From positions 1 to 43,685 of the IMG/VR virus record IMGVR_UViG_3300045988_135432: a DNA stretch of 43,685 nt, one strand, 5' to 3'. Below, one piece after another: positions 202 to 43,685 of this stretch. The translations under genes and the position numbers were made by a program. A model generated the notes under the pieces. It saw only the letters and a list, made by a program, of their open reading frames with translations, had not been told where the DNA came from and made no database searches. Source of the DNA: a virus. Numbering within the stretch: the first letter of the stretch is position 1; every line of letters begins with the position of its first letter.

Positions 202-230
202 TTGACAAGTAAATGCGAATGTGCTATAAT
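202..230 (+). promoter_or_regulatory. Perfect sigma70-type promoter TTGACA-17-TATAAT driving the plus-strand accessory module
   Basis: TTGACA 202-207, 17-nt spacer, TATAAT 225-230. The spacer holds the 18-mer ACAAGTAAATGCGAATGT (205-222), also present at 43578-43595. Confidence 0.75.
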
Positions 231-17925: not shown

Positions 17926-18210
17926 TTAATCGTCGTCCTTCTCCGGGTTGTCTTCCTTCGGCGCCCCGTTGAGCAGCCATTCGATGATGTCAATCAGCTC
18001 TGCGATGTCCTGCGTCTCACCGTTGAAATGCAGATAGCTCTTGCCCGTGATGTTAAACGTTAGCCCGTCTGTGTCAACCCAGACAACGGCATGAACGCCT
18101 GCTGCTTTCGCCGCGCGGATCGCCTGATTGATGAGGCTGTAGACAAGTTCTTCCTGCCCGTGCTCGAGCTTCTCGAGCCATCCCTTGTTACTCCGTGTTT
18201 GTTCTGTCAT
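17926..18210 (-). CDS. Hypothetical protein (94 aa); first gene of the leftward early operon
   Basis: SD GGAGGAAAAAA before the ATG at 18210. Confidence 0.65.
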   Translation of the reverse strand: MTEQTRSNKGWLEKLEHGQEELVYSLINQAIRAAKAAGVHAVVWVDTDGLTFNITGKSYLHFNGETQDIAELIDIIEWLLNGAPKEDNPEKDDD

Positions 18211-18242
18211 GGTTTTTTCCTCCTTGAATTTGGCACAAAATC

Positions 18243-18271
18243 TTGACAAATCAATGGCAACGTGATATAAT
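18243..18271 (+). promoter_or_regulatory. Perfect consensus promoter TTGACA-17-TATAAT for the toxin-like mini-gene
   Basis: TTGACA 18243-18248, TATAAT 18266-18271. Confidence 0.75.
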
Positions 18272-18320
18272 AGTAGTACCACATAGCAACCGTCGGGTGA
18301 GGGCTCGACACCCTATACTG

Positions 18321-18338
18321 AGAGCGCCACAGAGCGCC
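18321..18338 (+). repeat. Tandem AGAGCGCC-AC-AGAGCGCC in the 5' leader, 10 nt upstream of the SD
   Basis: Exact 8-mers at 18321 and 18331. The same dyad occurs at 38414-38430 and 42192-42208 (minus sense). Confidence 0.85.
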
Positions 18339-18362
18339 GAACCGTAATGGGGAGGTGGTCTT

Positions 18363-18446
18363 GTGAGTAAATTCGAGAAACTGTACCTAACCGTATGCAT
18401 TCTCCAGCTCATCGTTGACCTCTTAATGCTTGGTCTGACGCTTTAA
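18363..18446 (+). CDS. 27-aa hydrophobic peptide (V/M)SKFEKLYLTVCILQLIVDLLMLGLTL, type I toxin / holin-like-toxin candidate
   Basis: GTG 5 nt after GGGGAGGTG. A single predicted TM helix. Under 60 aa, so absent from the ORF track. Confidence 0.55.
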   Translation: MSKFEKLYLTVCILQLIVDLLMLGLTL

Positions 18447-18501
18447 TCAACTGACCGTTTAAGCGACTGAGTTCACTGACATTTCGATTATCGCACATCC
18501 C

Positions 18502-18583
18502 AGAAAATAACCGCATTCAGGAATCCGCCTGAATACGGAGTACCCTCACCCGACGTCGTTTTGCCTGTCACGAATTTGTGACT
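18502..18583 (-). ncRNA. Candidate ~80-nt antisense RNA overlapping the 3' end of the toxin-like mRNA (or the attenuated leader of the early operon)
   Basis: It starts downstream of the perfect minus-strand promoter at 18590-18618. It ends at hairpin 18511-18538, which on the minus strand is followed by TTATTTT. Confidence 0.35.
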
Positions 18584-18589
18584 GATAAT
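18561..18589 (+). promoter_or_regulatory. Candidate repressor promoter TTGCCT-17-GATAAT with an inverted repeat GTCAC-N6-GTGAC in the spacer
   Basis: TTGCCT 18561-18566, GATAAT 18584-18589. Its -10 abuts the -10 of the divergent promoter. Confidence 0.45.
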
Positions 18590-18618
18590 ATTATACTCCA
18601 ACTTTCGTTCTATGTCAA
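18590..18618 (-). promoter_or_regulatory. Perfect consensus promoter TTGACA-17-TATAAT (leftward; early-lytic and/or antisense RNA)
   Basis: Reverse complement: TTGACA = 18618-18613, TATAAT = 18595-18590, 17-nt spacer. Confidence 0.75.
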
Positions 18619-18639
18619 GGGGTTAATAGAACTTTCGTT
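18600..18639. repeat. Two exact copies of AACTTTCGTT, 30 bp apart (operator candidates)
   Basis: Copies at 18600-18609 (inside the spacer of the leftward promoter) and 18630-18639. Confidence 0.6.
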
Positions 18640-18675
18640 GGATTCTGCGATGTGCACAAAGAGGGAGGGAGTACT

Positions 18676-19014
18676 TTGTTCAATATGGACATTTTCAAAG
18701 TTAGAATCAAAGAGCGTTGCAAGATCACCGGTGTGTCTCAAAAGCATCTATGCGATGCAGTTGGCAAAAGCAAACAATATCTGAACAACGTATGGGATGG
18801 TAAATGTAGCGCGACATCCGATGAGATTGCGTCGTTTGCATCAATCCTCTCTACTACTCCCGCCTACCTCACCGGTGAGACTGACGATCCCGCCCCCACG
18901 GGCAGCCCAGACGAGCTGTCCTCCGAAGAAAAAGAACTGCTCGAGCTTTACCGGAGCGTGTCCCCGGAGAAGCAGGAGTTGTTCAAGAAAATCATTGAGC
19001 AGATGAAAGGGTGA
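18676..19014 (+). CDS. XRE-family HTH repressor (CI-like)
   Basis: The TTG at 18676 lies 7 nt after GGAGG (an alternative ATG is at 18685). HTH GVSQKHLCDAVGKSKQYLNNVWDGK. Divergent from the early operon and upstream of int. Confidence 0.8.
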   Translation: MFNMDIFKVRIKERCKITGVSQKHLCDAVGKSKQYLNNVWDGKCSATSDEIASFASILSTTPAYLTGETDDPAPTGSPDELSSEEKELLELYRSVSPEKQELFKKIIEQMKG

Positions 19015-19452
19015 TTGGGTTTGAGCAAGAAATGCAACCGGTGCGGTAGAGAAGTCCCTGACGACGCGATACGATGCCCATACTGCACCGACAGCGGAAT
19101 CGGGGTAGATATGACCGGCGTGTCGCTGAAGGACGGCGATGAGACAGATAAGGTGTACCGTGAAGCGCACAGTGACAGCCGACCGGTGAAACAGTACGCG
19201 CCCGACTCCGTGCCGTGGCTGAGAAGAACGTCGGCGGTATTCAGTGTCGTGGCGGTGATTATATATGTTGCGGCGGTCATGGAGATAATCGGCGTATGCC
19301 TCAGCGGTATGTCGGGCGACGTCATCCCGTTTTGGGTAGGCGTTTTTTTCGGCTTGCTTGTAGTAGGCACTATTTATTCAGCAATCGGTGCGCACCTGAG
19401 CGGTATGGCGGATATAGTCGACGGTCTCGATGCGCTGAACAAAAAGAAATAA
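19015..19452 (+). CDS. Zinc-ribbon membrane protein (N-terminal CxxC...CxxC, two or three C-terminal TM helices)
   Basis: CNRCGREVPDDAIRCPYC, then hydrophobic segments. Co-transcribed with the repressor. Confidence 0.7.
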   Translation: MGLSKKCNRCGREVPDDAIRCPYCTDSGIGVDMTGVSLKDGDETDKVYREAHSDSRPVKQYAPDSVPWLRRTSAVFSVVAVIIYVAAVMEIIGVCLSGMSGDVIPFWVGVFFGLLVVGTIYSAIGAHLSGMADIVDGLDALNKKK

Positions 19453-19814: not shown

Positions 19815-20849
19815 ATGATTATGGACAAACTCCCGAGCGGCAGCTGGCGTGCAAGGGTGCTGATAGGAGAGAATAAGTACAAAACGTTTTCGGGCAAGGA
19901 TAAGAAGGACGTGCAGCTCCGCGCTGCACAGTTCGAGGCGGAGAGGAAGATGGACAAGCCTGACGATCCGTATGCGGGCATGACGGTTGGAGAGGCGATG
20001 GAGCGGTACGTCGAGGCGAAGAAGAATACCCTGTCGCCGTCGTCGTACCGCGAATTTACACGCATCAGGTTAAGCAATCTTTCTGCGTTGCGAAATGTAA
20101 AGCTCGCCGACCTGACGCAGGAGCAGGTGCAGCTTGCCATAAGCGCGGAATCCGCCGACCACTCGCCGAAGACTGTCCGCTGTATGCACGGGCTGTTGTC
20201 CTCGACGTTGAAAATGTTCCGACCGGATATGACGTTGCATACGAAACTCCCACAGACGCAGAAGAGTGAGATCGTGATTCCAGAGGAGGTTGACGTCATG
20301 TCTCTGCTGGCGACTGTGCGGGGAAGTGATATCGACGCCGCTGTTCACCTCGGCGCGCTGTGCGGGATGCGGATGTCGGAAATCCTCGGGCTGAGATGGT
20401 CTAAGGTGGACTTCGACGCGAAGACGATCCACATCTGCGCGGCGAAGATTAGAGGGATGGACAACAAAGCTACCATGAAGCTTCCGAAGACCAGAGCCGG
20501 CGACCGGACAATCAGGATGCTGCCCGCCGTCGAGGCGGCGCTCAGACGCGCGTATCAGCCGGATGCAGAGTTTGTCACCACACTGTCGGAGCGTACCGTG
20601 CGGAAGCACTATCAGCATGCGCTTGAGCTGTGCTGTGGCAAGCACTATACTTTTCACGCTCTGCGCCACTATGCGGCGTCTGTGATGATCCTGCTGAATA
20701 TCCCGGTGAAGTACATCGCCGACTATCTCGGGCACGAAACTGAAGACATGGTGAACCGCATCTATGGGCATATTATGCGGGACAAGAAGGATGAAATATT
20801 CGCCCGGCTTGAAGAATATTATAATAACATTTTGCAAAATCCGTCATGA
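19815..20849 (+). CDS. int: Tyrosine integrase
   Basis: Catalytic pattern R...HALRHYAASVM...GH...Y with an SAM-like N-terminal domain. Adjacent to attP. Confidence 0.92.
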   Translation: MIMDKLPSGSWRARVLIGENKYKTFSGKDKKDVQLRAAQFEAERKMDKPDDPYAGMTVGEAMERYVEAKKNTLSPSSYREFTRIRLSNLSALRNVKLADLTQEQVQLAISAESADHSPKTVRCMHGLLSSTLKMFRPDMTLHTKLPQTQKSEIVIPEEVDVMSLLATVRGSDIDAAVHLGALCGMRMSEILGLRWSKVDFDAKTIHICAAKIRGMDNKATMKLPKTRAGDRTIRMLPAVEAALRRAYQPDAEFVTTLSERTVRKHYQHALELCCGKHYTFHALRHYAASVMILLNIPVKYIADYLGHETEDMVNRIYGHIMRDKKDEIFARLEEYYNNILQNPS

Positions 20850-21020: not shown

Positions 21021-21086
21021 CGAAATTCCGCCGTCAAAAACGGTATTTCGGAATCAAATCTGTCACGAATCTGTCACGCTGTCATG
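21021..21086 (+). repeat. attP P'-arm repeats (CGAAATTCCGCCGTCA; AAATCTGTCACG, AATCTGTCACG, CTGTCATG)
   Basis: Direct repeats of C(C/T)GTCA(C/T)G-type sites in the same orientation as the P-arm copies. Confidence 0.6.
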
Positions 21087-21112
21087 AGAAAAGCCGGGGA
21101 TTTTTCCCCGGC
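21086..21112 (-). terminator. Intrinsic terminator at the end of the rightmost minus-strand units
   Basis: GCCGGGG aaaaat CCCCGGC followed by TTTTCTC on the minus strand. Confidence 0.75.
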
Positions 21113-38369: not shown

Positions 38370-38421
38370 AGAGCGCCAGAACCGACAGGCTGTGTAAAAG
38401 CCTGTAGATATCTGGCGCTCT
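38365..38421 (-). terminator. Branched intrinsic terminator after portal and com
   Basis: Minus strand: AGAGCGCCAGA ... ACAGGCT tttacac AGCCTGT ... TCTGGCGCTCT followed by TTTTT. Confidence 0.7.
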
Positions 38422-38430
38422 TGGCGCTCT
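38414..38430 (-). repeat. Tandem AGAGCGCC-A-AGAGCGCC (minus sense); the second copy forms the 5' arm of the terminator stem
   Basis: ggcgctct at 38414-38421 and 38423-38430 on the plus strand. Confidence 0.85.
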
Positions 38431-40295: not shown

Positions 40296-40324
40296 ATTAT
40301 ACACCTTAAACGAATTTTTGTCAA
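40296..40324 (-). promoter_or_regulatory. Perfect consensus promoter TTGACA-17-TATAAT between terL and portal
   Basis: Reverse complement: TTGACA = 40324-40319, TATAAT = 40301-40296. Confidence 0.7.
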
Positions 40325-42168: not shown

Positions 42169-42191
42169 GACGCCACTCTCCTTCAAGAAAT

Positions 42192-42208
42192 GGCGCTCTG
42201 GGCGCTCT
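42192..42208 (-). repeat. Tandem AGAGCGCC-C-AGAGCGCC (minus sense), 6 nt upstream of the terL SD
   Basis: ggcgctct at 42192-42199 and 42201-42208 on the plus strand. Confidence 0.85.
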
Positions 42209-42655
42209 AAGTATAGGGGTACGGTACTCCGTGCGGCGGGATGCCGGTACGGGATGGTGCGCGGGAATGCCCGCCGATAATTGCTGTTGTTGCTTGTTAT
42301 TCCGTGACCGCTTCACGCGGTCAGGTGAACGTTTGCGGCATCTGTTTGCTGTCTTTCCTTTGCGGAACAGCCGGTTGTGGCTCGGAGACTTAACACTGAA
42401 TCAGCGTTAAATCAGCGTTAAGTCAGCGTTGAACTTGCGCCGCGCTTGCTCATAACTTGCGCCAGTTTACGGTTTGTTTACGTATTGGTTAAAACTTACT
42501 TTGCGCCGGTTGGAACACGGTTCAAGCTAACTTGAAACTAACTTGAAACTAACTTGAACCTGACTTGGAACCCGGTTCAAGGCCGCCGCCCCGTTACACG
42601 TGTTATTGTGTTACGGTGTTACGGCTTGTTGGAGCTTGATTGAGTCTTGGTGGAA
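42209..42655. repeat. Non-coding mosaic of short tandem repeats and hairpins (pac/cos or recombinase-site candidate)
   Basis: (A/G)TCAGCGTT(A/G)A x3 (42399-42431), AACTTGCGCC x2, GTTTACG x2, CTAACTTGAAA x3 flanked by CGGTTCAAG x2 (42518-42581), GTGTTA(C/T) x3 (42599-42620, in ACGTGTTATTGTGTTACGGTGTTACGG). Hairpin TGACCGC ttcac GCGGTCA (42305-42323). Confidence 0.8.
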
Positions 42656-43443
42656 TTATTTCAGTATCGGCTCGTGGGCTCCGGGAACGTAGTCCATGCC
42701 GTCGCCGTATTTGTACAGCCCTTCGTATACAGGCCTGTTGTCACGGATGCTGCGAATGTTCGATTCGCGGAATCTGCCGCCTTTGCGGGTCTTGTACCCG
42801 GCGTCGGATATTGAATCCGCAATTTCCCACAGCGACTTCTTCGCGGCGAGACCGTCGAATACCATGCGGACAATGGGCTCTTCCGCCGGATTGATGACCA
42901 GCTGACCGTGTTCGACTTGGTACCCGTACGGAGCGCGCCCGCCGCTGTAGCCGCCGACTTTCGCTTTGCACTCGCGTCCTTTGCGCGTGCGGAGGGTGAT
43001 GTTTTTGCGTTCCTGCTCTGCCACGAACAGCATAAGCGACCGGTAAATGTTCGACAGCGCGTCGTCACTGTCGAAATGCTCGTTGACTGACAGCAGCTTG
43101 ATGTTCTTCTTTTCGAGTACGTACAGGTAGTAGAAGTACAGCTTCGTGTCTCTTGACAGCCGGTCGGTTTTCGCAATGATCACTGCTTCGTACGGCGGAT
43201 TAGTCATATCGTCGCCGTAGAGCAGTTCGTTCAGCGCGGGGCGGTCTTCCTTCACGCCGCTCACGCCGTCTTCTTCGTACCACTTCACGATTTTGTACCC
43301 GTTGTCGTTGGCGTATTGAAGTATCTGCGCTTTCTGCGAATCTATTCCGAAACGGTCATCCCCGGTCTGCCCATCGGTGCTGACGCGGACATACCCGACC
43401 GCGCTCTTGATTCTGTTGTCGTCGTTCTTGATTTCTTTCCCCA
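42656..43443 (-). CDS. Serine recombinase, short form (resolvase catalytic domain plus recombinase domain; no zinc-ribbon/coiled-coil C-terminus)
   Basis: AVGYVRVSTDGQ catalytic Ser motif, then GGRAPYGYQV...INPAEEPIVRMVF recombinase domain. Ends after 262 aa. SD AAGGAGAA before the ATG at 43443. Confidence 0.85.
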
Positions 43444-43569
43444 TGATTGTTCTCCTTGCATCTATCAAATTTCGCGGAACTGGCCGCCTTCGCCCTCCGC
43501 GCCATGTTCTTGCTCGCGCACCGCCGCCGGTCATACCAGCTCTCGTAGTCATTGCTTTTCGCTGTTACT

Positions 43570-43598
43570 ATTATACCACAAGTAAATGCGAATGTCAA
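43570..43598 (-). promoter_or_regulatory. Perfect consensus promoter TTGACA-17-TATAAT for the serine recombinase
   Basis: Reverse complement: TTGACA = 43598-43593, TATAAT = 43575-43570. The spacer carries the inverted 18-mer (43578-43595). Confidence 0.75.
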
Positions 43599-43610: not shown

Positions 43611-43685
43611 ATTTTTTTTGGTGGGGAGGGTCAACCGCGCCGCCTCCCCGGCAAATACACCCCCGGGGTACCCGCCGCGCCGGGG
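43611..43685. repeat. 75-bp terminal direct repeat, copy 2
   Basis: Identical to bases 1-75. Confidence 0.95.

Follow-up and report, generated by a model that had tools for sequence, protein, structure and literature searches.

A convergent-promoter region with a peptide-encoding counter-transcript as a candidate lysis–lysogeny switch in an uncultured gut phage

The virus record IMGVR_UViG_3300045988_135432 of IMG/VR (43,685 nt, the whole of which is called the window here) has a 475-bp gap between a minus-strand early operon (first ATG at 18210) and a plus-strand lysogeny module, and the contents of this gap raise the question of what a very small transcription unit is doing at such a place. 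The unit, a conserved stretch of 310 bp referred to below as the cassette, holds two consensus promoters that face each other (P+ on the plus strand and P− on the minus strand), an open reading frame (ORF) for a hydrophobic peptide of 27 residues and two distant, complementary arms. An original prediction, made from the sequence, took it for a type I toxin–antitoxin locus and offered as a fallback that it might be an attenuator in the leader of the early-lytic operon. The reading that we prefer is that the locus is a lysis–lysogeny control region, working as a convergent-promoter antisense/attenuation switch in which the counter-transcript also encodes a membrane peptide; we put its probability at roughly 0.45, somewhat short of even.

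Convergent promoters, operators and a putative attenuator

The features of the locus are collected in Table 1. Both P+ and P− are exact matches to the consensus, as the original prediction had said, and their predicted starts lie ~305 nt apart in convergent orientation. Thirty copies of the cassette were compared: that of the window, those of 28 ORF-bearing relatives and that of one variant without the ORF, with IMG/VR, assemblies of human-gut metagenomes and a single 46-kb contig in a Gastranaerophilales metagenome-assembled genome (MAG) as the sources. P+ is perfect in 30 of the 30 copies despite three versions of its spacer, and P− is perfect in every copy in which that region could be read. 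Promoters that are perfect or have one mismatch number six in the window, five of them perfect, where 0.06 are expected. The two promoters of the locus are real, yet this phage makes a habit of consensus promoters, which are not specific to the locus.

The block that is conserved between copies stops exactly at the −10 box of P−. Beyond it lie two copies of a 14–17-bp palindrome (O1 and O2), and these paired palindromes are swapped wherever the N-terminal half of the XRE-family repressor differs, giving four immunity types among the type-A cassettes and a further one in type B, where the repressor is paired with an ImmA/IrrE protease. By this comparison P− is the repressor-controlled early-lytic promoter. 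No other strong promoter is found on the minus strand ahead of the early operon, with weak candidates only in between, which agrees with the earlier remark that no other sigma70-like promoter was seen for that operon; early-lytic transcription should therefore start at P−, cross the cassette and run antisense to the ORF. Because immunity-specific operators flank the −35 box of P−, its RNA is predicted to be off in lysogens, when P+ is free to fire. No recognisable repressor operator is found at P+.

Downstream of P− is a hairpin with a T-run on the minus strand only (TTATTTTCTG), which the original prediction had picked out and which is the top terminator-like site in a scan of the region. The stem consists of 11 pairs (6 G–C) and starts 45 nt downstream of the predicted P− start, with the first early gene 290 nt further on, and the fold of the predicted 90-nt P− RNA has a z-score of −3.67 against shuffled controls. 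Stem and U-tract (UUAUUUUCU) are kept in all 30 copies, including the ORF-less variant and the relatives in which P− is distant; within the stem, position 18514/18535 is hypervariable and is Watson–Crick paired in no copy examined. Together P− and the hairpin would give an RNA of ~80 nt that overlaps the 3′ region of the peptide transcript, which is the short antisense RNA envisaged at the outset. As no strong promoter other than P− precedes the early operon, the hairpin is assigned as an attenuator in the early-lytic leader, and the fallback of the original prediction, in which lytic transcription itself is antisense to the peptide gene, holds up well. A weak extended −10 candidate on the minus strand (TGcGATAAT, ~18492–18487) has the hexamer variants GATAAT, TACAAT, TATGAT and TATAAC.

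Table 1. Features of the cassette, its flanking genes and the second copy of the leader element (positions are those of the window; a point marks features without an assigned strand)
Feature	Position	Strand	Remarks
First early-operon gene, 94 aa, predicted ORF	17926–18210	−	ATG 18210, 33 nt from the P+ −35 box
P+ promoter, perfect TTGACA-17-TATAAT with TG extension	18243–18271	+	predicted start ~18278
5′ arm of long-range helix, CGTCGGGTGAGGG	18291–18303	+	perfect 13-nt inverted repeat with 18543–18555
28-nt element of the 5′ untranslated region (UTR), CCCTATACTgAGAGCGCCacAGAGCGCC, with tandem AGAGCGCC	18311–18338	+	most conserved part of the cassette
Shine–Dalgarno (SD) sequence GGGGAGGTGG (18349–18358) and 27-aa ORF, GTG 18363 to TAA 18446, MSKFEKLYLTVCILQLIVDLLMLGLTL	18349–18446	+	from the sequence and the ORF list
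Most variable stretch of the cassette	18466–18505	.	13 of 40 columns vary
Predicted intrinsic terminator/attenuator of P− transcripts	18502–18538	−	stem 18538–18511, then UUAUUUUCU (18510–18502)
3′ arm of helix, CCCTCACCCGACG	18543–18555	+	followed by U-run at 18559–18562
Palindrome TGTCAC-N6-GTGACT	18566–18583	.	+1 to +18 of the P− transcript
P− promoter, perfect TTGACA-17-TATAAT	18590–18618	−	predicted start ~18583
Operators O1 (18597–18613, in P− spacer) and O2 (18626–18642, upstream of −35 box)	18597–18642	.	each with AACTTTCGTT
XRE-family repressor gene	18676–19014	+	start TTG 18676 or ATG 18685; 109-aa protein
Zinc-ribbon membrane protein	19015–19452	+	next after the XRE gene
Second copy of the element, CCCTATACTtAGAGCGCCcAGAGCGCC	42192–42218	−	leader of the large terminase gene (ATG 42168)

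The palindrome TGTCAC-N6-GTGACT at the start of the P− transcript sits in the spacer of a weak plus-strand promoter, CTGTCA-18-TATTAT (18565–18594), which could serve the XRE gene. It stays beside P− in type B, and a related sequence, TGGCAC-N6-TTGACA (18231–18248), overlaps the −35 box of P+; the two may form a Cro-like operator. The sequence TGTCACGAATCTGTCACGCTGTCATGAG at 21061–21089 (+), just 3′ of the integrase gene and at the point where similarity to the relatives stops, closely resembles this palindrome (TGTCACGAATTTGTGACT in 18566–18583), and the pair may be a common protein-binding motif or integrase arm sites.

In type-B relatives, 0.5–1.1 kb of other genes lie between the cassette and P−, and near the cassette there is only a promoter-like sequence with 9 of 12 matches. 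By this comparison P− and the cassette are apparently not one conserved unit in type B. Insertions in relatives cluster where the 3′ arm meets P− (L103 1–1400, equal to L104 8100–6700; L105 1–350; L118), a hot spot for cargo. Found there are a zinc-ribbon ORF (DUF1451-like), minus-strand ORFs of 93 and 63 aa and a 138-aa plus-strand protein with a hydrophobic N-terminus, in combinations that vary by contig.

Elsewhere in the window perfect promoters lie at 202–230 (+), 40296–40324 (−) and 43570–43598 (−). Those at 202 and 43598 are divergent and ~215 bp apart across the junction of the circular genome (described below), and the 17-mer CAAGTAAATGCGAATGT found in both spacers (206–222 and 43579–43595) resembles a shared operator. 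Upstream of the promoter at 40324, ATGACGGAATTTCG stands twice as a direct repeat.

Closing helix, peptide gene and leader element

The two arms form a perfect 13-nt inverted repeat, as had been claimed for them, and RNA folding gives the helix pair probabilities of 0.8–1.0. No other perfect 13-mer inverted repeat in the window has its arms ≤ 400 nt apart (shuffle mean 0.33). Taken alone the repeat is weakly significant, and what really supports the helix is the comparison of copies. In 20 distinct sequences, 95% of the cells of a 14-pair helix are paired, compared with 36–48% when the partner is slid along; compensatory double changes occur at four pairs, with both kinds of single-step intermediate present. 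These changes indicate that the closing helix is real and is kept by compensatory change. It is not kept strictly: 15 of the 20 distinct sequences have one or two mismatches between the arms, and the single-arm changes are nearly all transitions.

A closure of the hok/fst style, as first proposed, stands as far as the conserved helix is concerned and is not supported in silico as an occlusion of the SD sequence. The mean unpaired probability of SD and start codon in folding is 0.247 for the full-length RNA, 0.256 for the 3′-truncated RNA and 0.256 with the 3′ arm blocked; because accessibility is ~0.25 with or without the 3′ arm, the closure is not a translational lock of the hok/aapA1 style in silico. 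The U-run that had been noted after the 3′ arm is likewise only half borne out, being present in the window without being conserved; the window type has GTCGTTTTG at this place, other types GTCATATTTG, GTCATATCTG or GTCATATTCAATTTTG. Nor does the scan predict a plus-strand terminator anywhere from the ORF to the XRE gene. For these two reasons the P+ RNA may not end at the U-run.

The SD-preceded frame of 27 codons is present at GTG 18363, where it had been placed. Its 14 variable columns are distributed 7/0/7 over the three codon positions (P = 0.005 for zero second-position changes, computed outside the codons fixed by the pattern used to search for relatives), indels are absent, and the ORF-bearing copies keep both SD and start codon. 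Five peptide variants carry K3E, L7M, Y8H, T10A, V11I and T26A, which are conservative save K3E and Y8H. This pattern of change marks the 27-aa ORF as a genuine coding sequence under purifying selection. Both ORF and helix are thus conserved in relatives, a point on which the original prediction could have failed, with the ORF lost in one of 30 copies.

Residues 7–27 of the peptide, a 21-residue hydrophobic stretch with one Asp, have a mean hydropathy of 2.19. The N-terminus is charged; the C-terminus (...MLGLTL) has no charged residue, while a charged C-terminus is usual for type I toxins according to a review of Clostridia (PMC6563280). The suggested profile search for a type I toxin family returned no Pfam or NCBIfam match to the peptide at E ≤ 10, and no PHROG family was found at E ≤ 0.01. 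A role as the phage holin was considered and rejected, as a canonical holin and endolysin are encoded elsewhere.

One relative, IMGVR_UViG_3300045988_091180 (L149, 3300–3760), carries a deletion of ~137 nt that removes the SD sequence, the ORF and the start of the 3′ UTR. Left in place are P−, the terminator, P+ in its perfect form and the two arms, which still make 12 of their 13 pairs; the 5′-UTR element is degenerate, with eight changes in 36 nt. Because this contig lost SD and ORF and kept promoters, arms and terminator, the non-coding core would work without the peptide. The ORF, judged from this variant, is dispensable to the cassette. The peptide itself is probably not a lethal toxin.

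The 28-nt element in the 5′ UTR has no variable site among type-A copies (0 of 28, against 12 of 84 in the ORF) and one of 28 overall. A pairing is predicted between the second of its AGAGCGCC repeats and GGUGGUCU on the 3′ margin of the SD sequence, and type-B cassettes have four such repeats. The pattern CCCTATACTnAGAGCGCCn(n)AGAGCGCC occurs exactly twice in the genome (two matches, 0.06 expected), the other occurrence being on the coding strand of the large terminase gene, ~25 nt upstream of its SD sequence. The two copies align at 27 of 28 positions, a level reached by no shuffle, and the terminase copy is conserved in ~17 related contigs. At both sites pairing is possible between the AGAGCGCC repeats and the surroundings of SD and start codon; the terminase copy is then followed by a U-run (GGCGTCATGGGCGCT TTTTC at 42174–42160). 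The shared element suggests that translation of the peptide, or transcription, may be co-regulated with the packaging genes.

Attempts to place the element in a known class were negative. At the terminase-leader copy Rfam gives only chance matches (potC and mir-885, E > 1), and a hammerhead-like core, CUGAGAG, was rejected, since it misfits the consensus by eye and reads CUUAGAG in the terminase copy. A 10-nt identity (ACGGAGTACC) between the 3′ end of the cassette and the sequence upstream of the terminase-leader element is marginal (p ~ 0.016) and is not kept in type B. The repeat AGAGCGCC itself occurs 11 times in the window, where 2.6 are expected, and AGAGCGCC-A-AGAGCGCC forms the 5′ half of a terminator-like hairpin 3′ of the portal gene (38370–38430, −; ...TCTGGCGCTCTTTTT). 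The 450-bp non-coding gap leading from the serine recombinase gene to the terminase gene contains triple direct repeats, GTTTCAAGTTA and TTAACGCTGA (42395–42575, −), which may serve in packaging or regulation; a gene for a small terminase is not apparent ahead of that for the large one.

A proposed switch at the early-lytic leader and its competitors

The preferred model, the convergent-promoter antisense/attenuation switch, would operate as follows. In the lysogen, the XRE repressor would keep P− off through the two operators while the P+ RNA and the polymerases that make it sweep the leader. Stray initiations at P− would stop at the attenuator after ~45–80 nt, yielding mostly the short ~80-nt RNA, and only read-through would reach the early genes. 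The P+ RNA would be highly structured, its ends clamped by the 13–14-bp helix, and antisense to the early leader over its full length; except in one of the copies examined, it would also be the mRNA of the 27-residue membrane peptide. Convergent transcription and pairing of the two 5′ RNAs would then set a threshold on early-lytic expression. When the repressor is lost, P− would fire hard, the abundant short P− RNA would titrate the P+ RNA, and read-through, aided by this titration, would lift the early genes past the threshold. The peptide would be cargo of the counter-transcript, and not the reason for the cassette. Both transcripts probably exist and end where predicted, and the regulatory effect on the lytic genes is likely to be negative.

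Short RNAs of phage and plasmid control regions that pair with a leader bearing complementary repeats or a terminator are familiar from P4 CI RNA, P1/P7 c4, lambda OOP, P22 sar and the countertranscripts of pT181/pIP501, and the cassette is like them in this respect. To our knowledge none of these carries a peptide gene on the regulatory RNA, and none joins two consensus promoters with a clamped RNA of ~290 nt.

The nearest parallel in layout is prgQ/prgX of the conjugative plasmid pCF10 of Enterococcus faecalis. There PQ and PX converge over 223 nt and give two 5′ small RNAs that are antisense to one another. Anti-Q increases termination in the leader, and Qs combines the parts of leader, small-peptide mRNA and regulatory RNA, the last acting through RNase III (PMC3181467). 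The window has the same overlapping convergent 5′ regions (~305 nt), one promoter under repressor control, a repressed operon whose leader has a terminator, and an opposing 5′ RNA antisense to that leader; one 5′ RNA encodes a very small hydrophobic peptide, and the repressor gene lies on one side with a developmental operon on the other. The differences are as clear. In pCF10 the peptide ORF is on the repressed, attenuated transcript (Qs) whereas here it is on the counter-transcript. PrgX, which belongs to the RRNPP proteins, senses the pCF10 peptide, an inhibitor pheromone that is secreted; the window has an XRE repressor of 109 aa instead, and a look through its larger unknown ORFs brought up no receptor-like protein. 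In the parts of the pCF10 description consulted (PMC3181467) nothing corresponds to the long-range closing helix, and a phage and a plasmid without sequence homology are being compared.

Several points weigh against the switch. The starts, ends and read-through of the P+ and P− transcripts are all predictions. In type B, oppositely oriented genes lie between P− and the terminator, which complicates a simple 80-nt RNA. Depending on the lineage, the single-arm changes in the helix fit G–U pairs of the plus RNA or of the minus RNA, so that the helix may act on either transcript, and covariation of this sort would also arise from two identical, inverted protein-binding sites. The short P− leader showed no alternative structure that could act as antiterminator or pre-emptor, which leaves antisense-driven attenuation without a structural model. 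Finally, the label of cargo may understate the role of the peptide, given that it is under purifying selection and that nothing in the cassette is more conserved than its 5′ UTR.

The competitor that survives best, though we think it rather unlikely, makes P+ a lysogenic promoter of the type found in coliphages P2 and 186, whose transcript would run through P− into the XRE operon, with polymerase interference as the main control; the peptide would be the first cistron of the immunity transcript, for instance a superinfection-exclusion or other lysogenic-conversion membrane protein. In coliphage 186 the overlap of the two transcription units is ~62 bp, without a gene, terminator or structured RNA inside. 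The overlap here is ~305 bp and holds all three. The likeness is that lytic and lysogeny-side promoters face each other and that the repressor acts at the lytic promoter (PMC5001618, for the concept), and such interference is an established mechanism of phage switches (PMC5001618). Such a read-through transcript would account for the missing plus-strand terminator before XRE and for the poorly conserved U-run, and in type B P+ precedes the zinc-ribbon ORF and the 138-aa protein with a hydrophobic N-terminus on the same strand. A second group of gut phages (L039, 2825–2970, and ~20 similar loci; XRE proteins ~32% identical), which counts in favour of the preferred switch as well, has face-to-face promoters (10 of 12 and 11 of 12 matches) ~80 nt apart, placed between a Cro-like gene and the XRE gene and directly upstream of the latter. 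Set against this, a conserved proximal promoter candidate for XRE overlaps the −10 box of P− (CTGTCA-18-TATTAT or TTGCCT-17-GATAAT), so that P+ is not needed for expression of XRE; P+ of type B would have to cross 1.1 kb with oppositely oriented genes to reach it; and both the conserved closing helix and the minus-strand terminator are left unexplained. The explanation overlaps the antisense/attenuation model. The hairpin between the L039 promoters has arms (GGTGAGGGG and CCCTTCAC) that resemble those of the cassette; homology was rejected, with alignment scores not above those of shuffles (p = 0.2 and 0.5).

A true type I toxin–antitoxin system, the first idea about this locus, is in our judgement unlikely. 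The P+ mRNA would encode a membrane-damaging toxin of 27 residues held inactive by folding of the mRNA, and the ~80-nt P− RNA would pair with the 3′ end of that mRNA and bring about its degradation, as in txpA/RatA and bsrG/SR4, serving prophage stabilization or acting at induction. Much of the architecture agrees: a small hydrophobic ORF under coding constraint, a perfect convergent promoter and terminator that predict a 3′-overlapping antisense RNA, a covariation-conserved helix that joins the 5′ and 3′ ends, and an SD sequence predicted to be mostly paired (unpaired probability ~0.25). Type I modules are common in Gram-positive prophages and often share no sequence homology with one another (PMC6563280), and txpA/RatA and bsrG/SR4 of Bacillus subtilis and CD0956.2/RCd10 of C. 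difficile are similar in having a small hydrophobic ORF, a convergent antisense RNA that covers the 3′ end, a prophage location and an SD predicted to be occluded (PMC6563280). What does not agree is the wiring. Here, unlike in the txpA/RatA group, the antisense promoter is the operator-controlled lytic promoter, predicted to be silent in lysogens, where an antitoxin RNA would have to be constitutive and in excess of the toxin mRNA; it is separable from the cassette, as in type B, where the only local candidate is the 9/12 match and P+ appears to run on into further genes. The peptide, with its charged N-terminus and uncharged C-terminus, departs from that group as well and matches no family, and the natural variant without the ORF keeps the RNA scaffold and all else.

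The closing helix brings the locus close to a second class of type I systems, hok/sok and aapA1/IsoA1, where a conserved 5′–3′ helix is likewise present on the mRNA of a membrane peptide of ~30 aa, the full-length fold occludes the SD until 3′ processing, and the antisense RNA targets the 5′ region (PMC5416894). Here, unlike in those systems, the 3′ arm is without effect on predicted SD accessibility and the antisense RNA covers the 3′ end. The toxin–antitoxin proposal is therefore upheld in its architecture (selected hydrophobic ORF, helix, predicted convergent RNA) and not in wiring, family match or SD lock.

It is quite improbable that the arms are instead two copies of one protein-binding site, at about +13 of P+ and +28 of P−, where a conserved phage regulator could bind and so block the two promoters or loop them. 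The arms are oriented alike with respect to their own promoters, the covariation shows only that both copies stay alike, the G–U strand test is ambiguous, and operator-like repeats are often found in or near the perfect promoters of this phage. A bound protein fits less well with the one or two mismatches tolerated in 15 of the 20 sequences, nearly all of them transitions; no candidate binding protein co-varies with arm type, and as RNA the helix is extremely stable in silico (pair probabilities ~1.0).

A bolder form of the pCF10 parallel would have the P+ RNA serve both as a switch RNA that steers read-through of the attenuator and as the mRNA of a hydrophobic pro-peptide of the PrgQ/SHP kind, which would be exported to signal between cells or at the membrane in the lysis–lysogeny decision, with its translation gated by the AGAGCGCC-repeat element also found ahead of the terminase gene. 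We regard this as highly improbable. No RRNPP/Rgg-like receptor for a signalling peptide was found among the larger unknown ORFs. If true, it would be a pCF10-style, peptide-coupled bistable switch running a prophage, of a kind undescribed in phages.

Scarcely credible, finally, is an inverton in which the 13-bp repeats are recombination sites and the segment 18304–18542 is flipped by the serine recombinase of the phage, moving the terminator into the path of P+ and making the peptide gene the first sense gene of the lytic transcript: the repeats do flank a 239-bp segment between two promoters (termed outward in this setting), a 298-aa recombinase of the resolvase/invertase family is encoded at 42659–43552 and concerted change of the arms fits this equally well as an RNA helix, but all of the 30 independently assembled copies have the segment in one orientation relative to P+ and the early gene, so that it was rejected, and in addition the type-B right arm is not beside P−, which breaks the required symmetry, and the repeat is short and without dyad-symmetric site structure.

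The phage, its relatives and the significance of the locus

The ends of the window are identical over 75 nt (1–75 = 43611–43685), so that it represents a circularly closed genome of ~43.6 kb and not a prophage with host flanks. The source is an uncultured human-gut phage; the closest large terminase of a cultured phage is that of Clostridium phage Maintenon (46% identity), and the switch region has no DNA similarity among cultured phages. The lysogeny module on the plus strand consists of the XRE repressor, which has PHROG matches to transcriptional regulators/repressors and a weak HTH_31 match, the zinc-ribbon membrane protein and a tyrosine integrase (19815–20849). The integrase coexists with the serine recombinase (298 aa, Resolvase and Recombinase domains; 42659–43552, −), which has its own perfect promoter. 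On the other side of the cassette, the first early gene of the window is unrelated to the gene at the same position in the relatives compared (~60% nucleotide identity, which is noise level) and, used as a query, found no relatives, being unique to the window; because the first early gene is unrelated among relatives, a module boundary is placed at the edge of the cassette.

The first 11 relatives found are mosaics of near-identical phages (93–100% in most modules). Exceptional conservation of the intergenic region was rejected on these 11, as the 98–99% identity of the cassette matches the near-identity of most other modules. Among species-representative genomes the sole match is the GTDB contig CAVIXF010000341.1 (L105), from a ‘Candidatus Gastranaerophilales’ MAG; as its length equals that of the phage genome, it may be a mis-binned phage contig, and would then be no evidence for the host. 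Rfam 15 gave no match at gathering score over the whole window and none at E ≤ 10 over 18100–18800, and neither tRNA nor tmRNA genes were found.

Most textbook phage switches have back-to-back promoters and use protein repressors only. What this locus adds is two consensus promoters set face to face, a terminator in the lytic leader and a clamped antisense RNA that encodes a membrane peptide under selection. It also carries a caution, in that the full look of a type I toxin–antitoxin locus is possible with wiring that does not fit toxin–antitoxin logic. The natural variants of the family are ready-made genetic controls, among them the copy without the ORF, the copies with inserted cargo and the five operator types. 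If the RNA layer works as proposed, this would be a testable case of RNA setting the threshold of prophage induction, in a family of gut phages without a cultured member.

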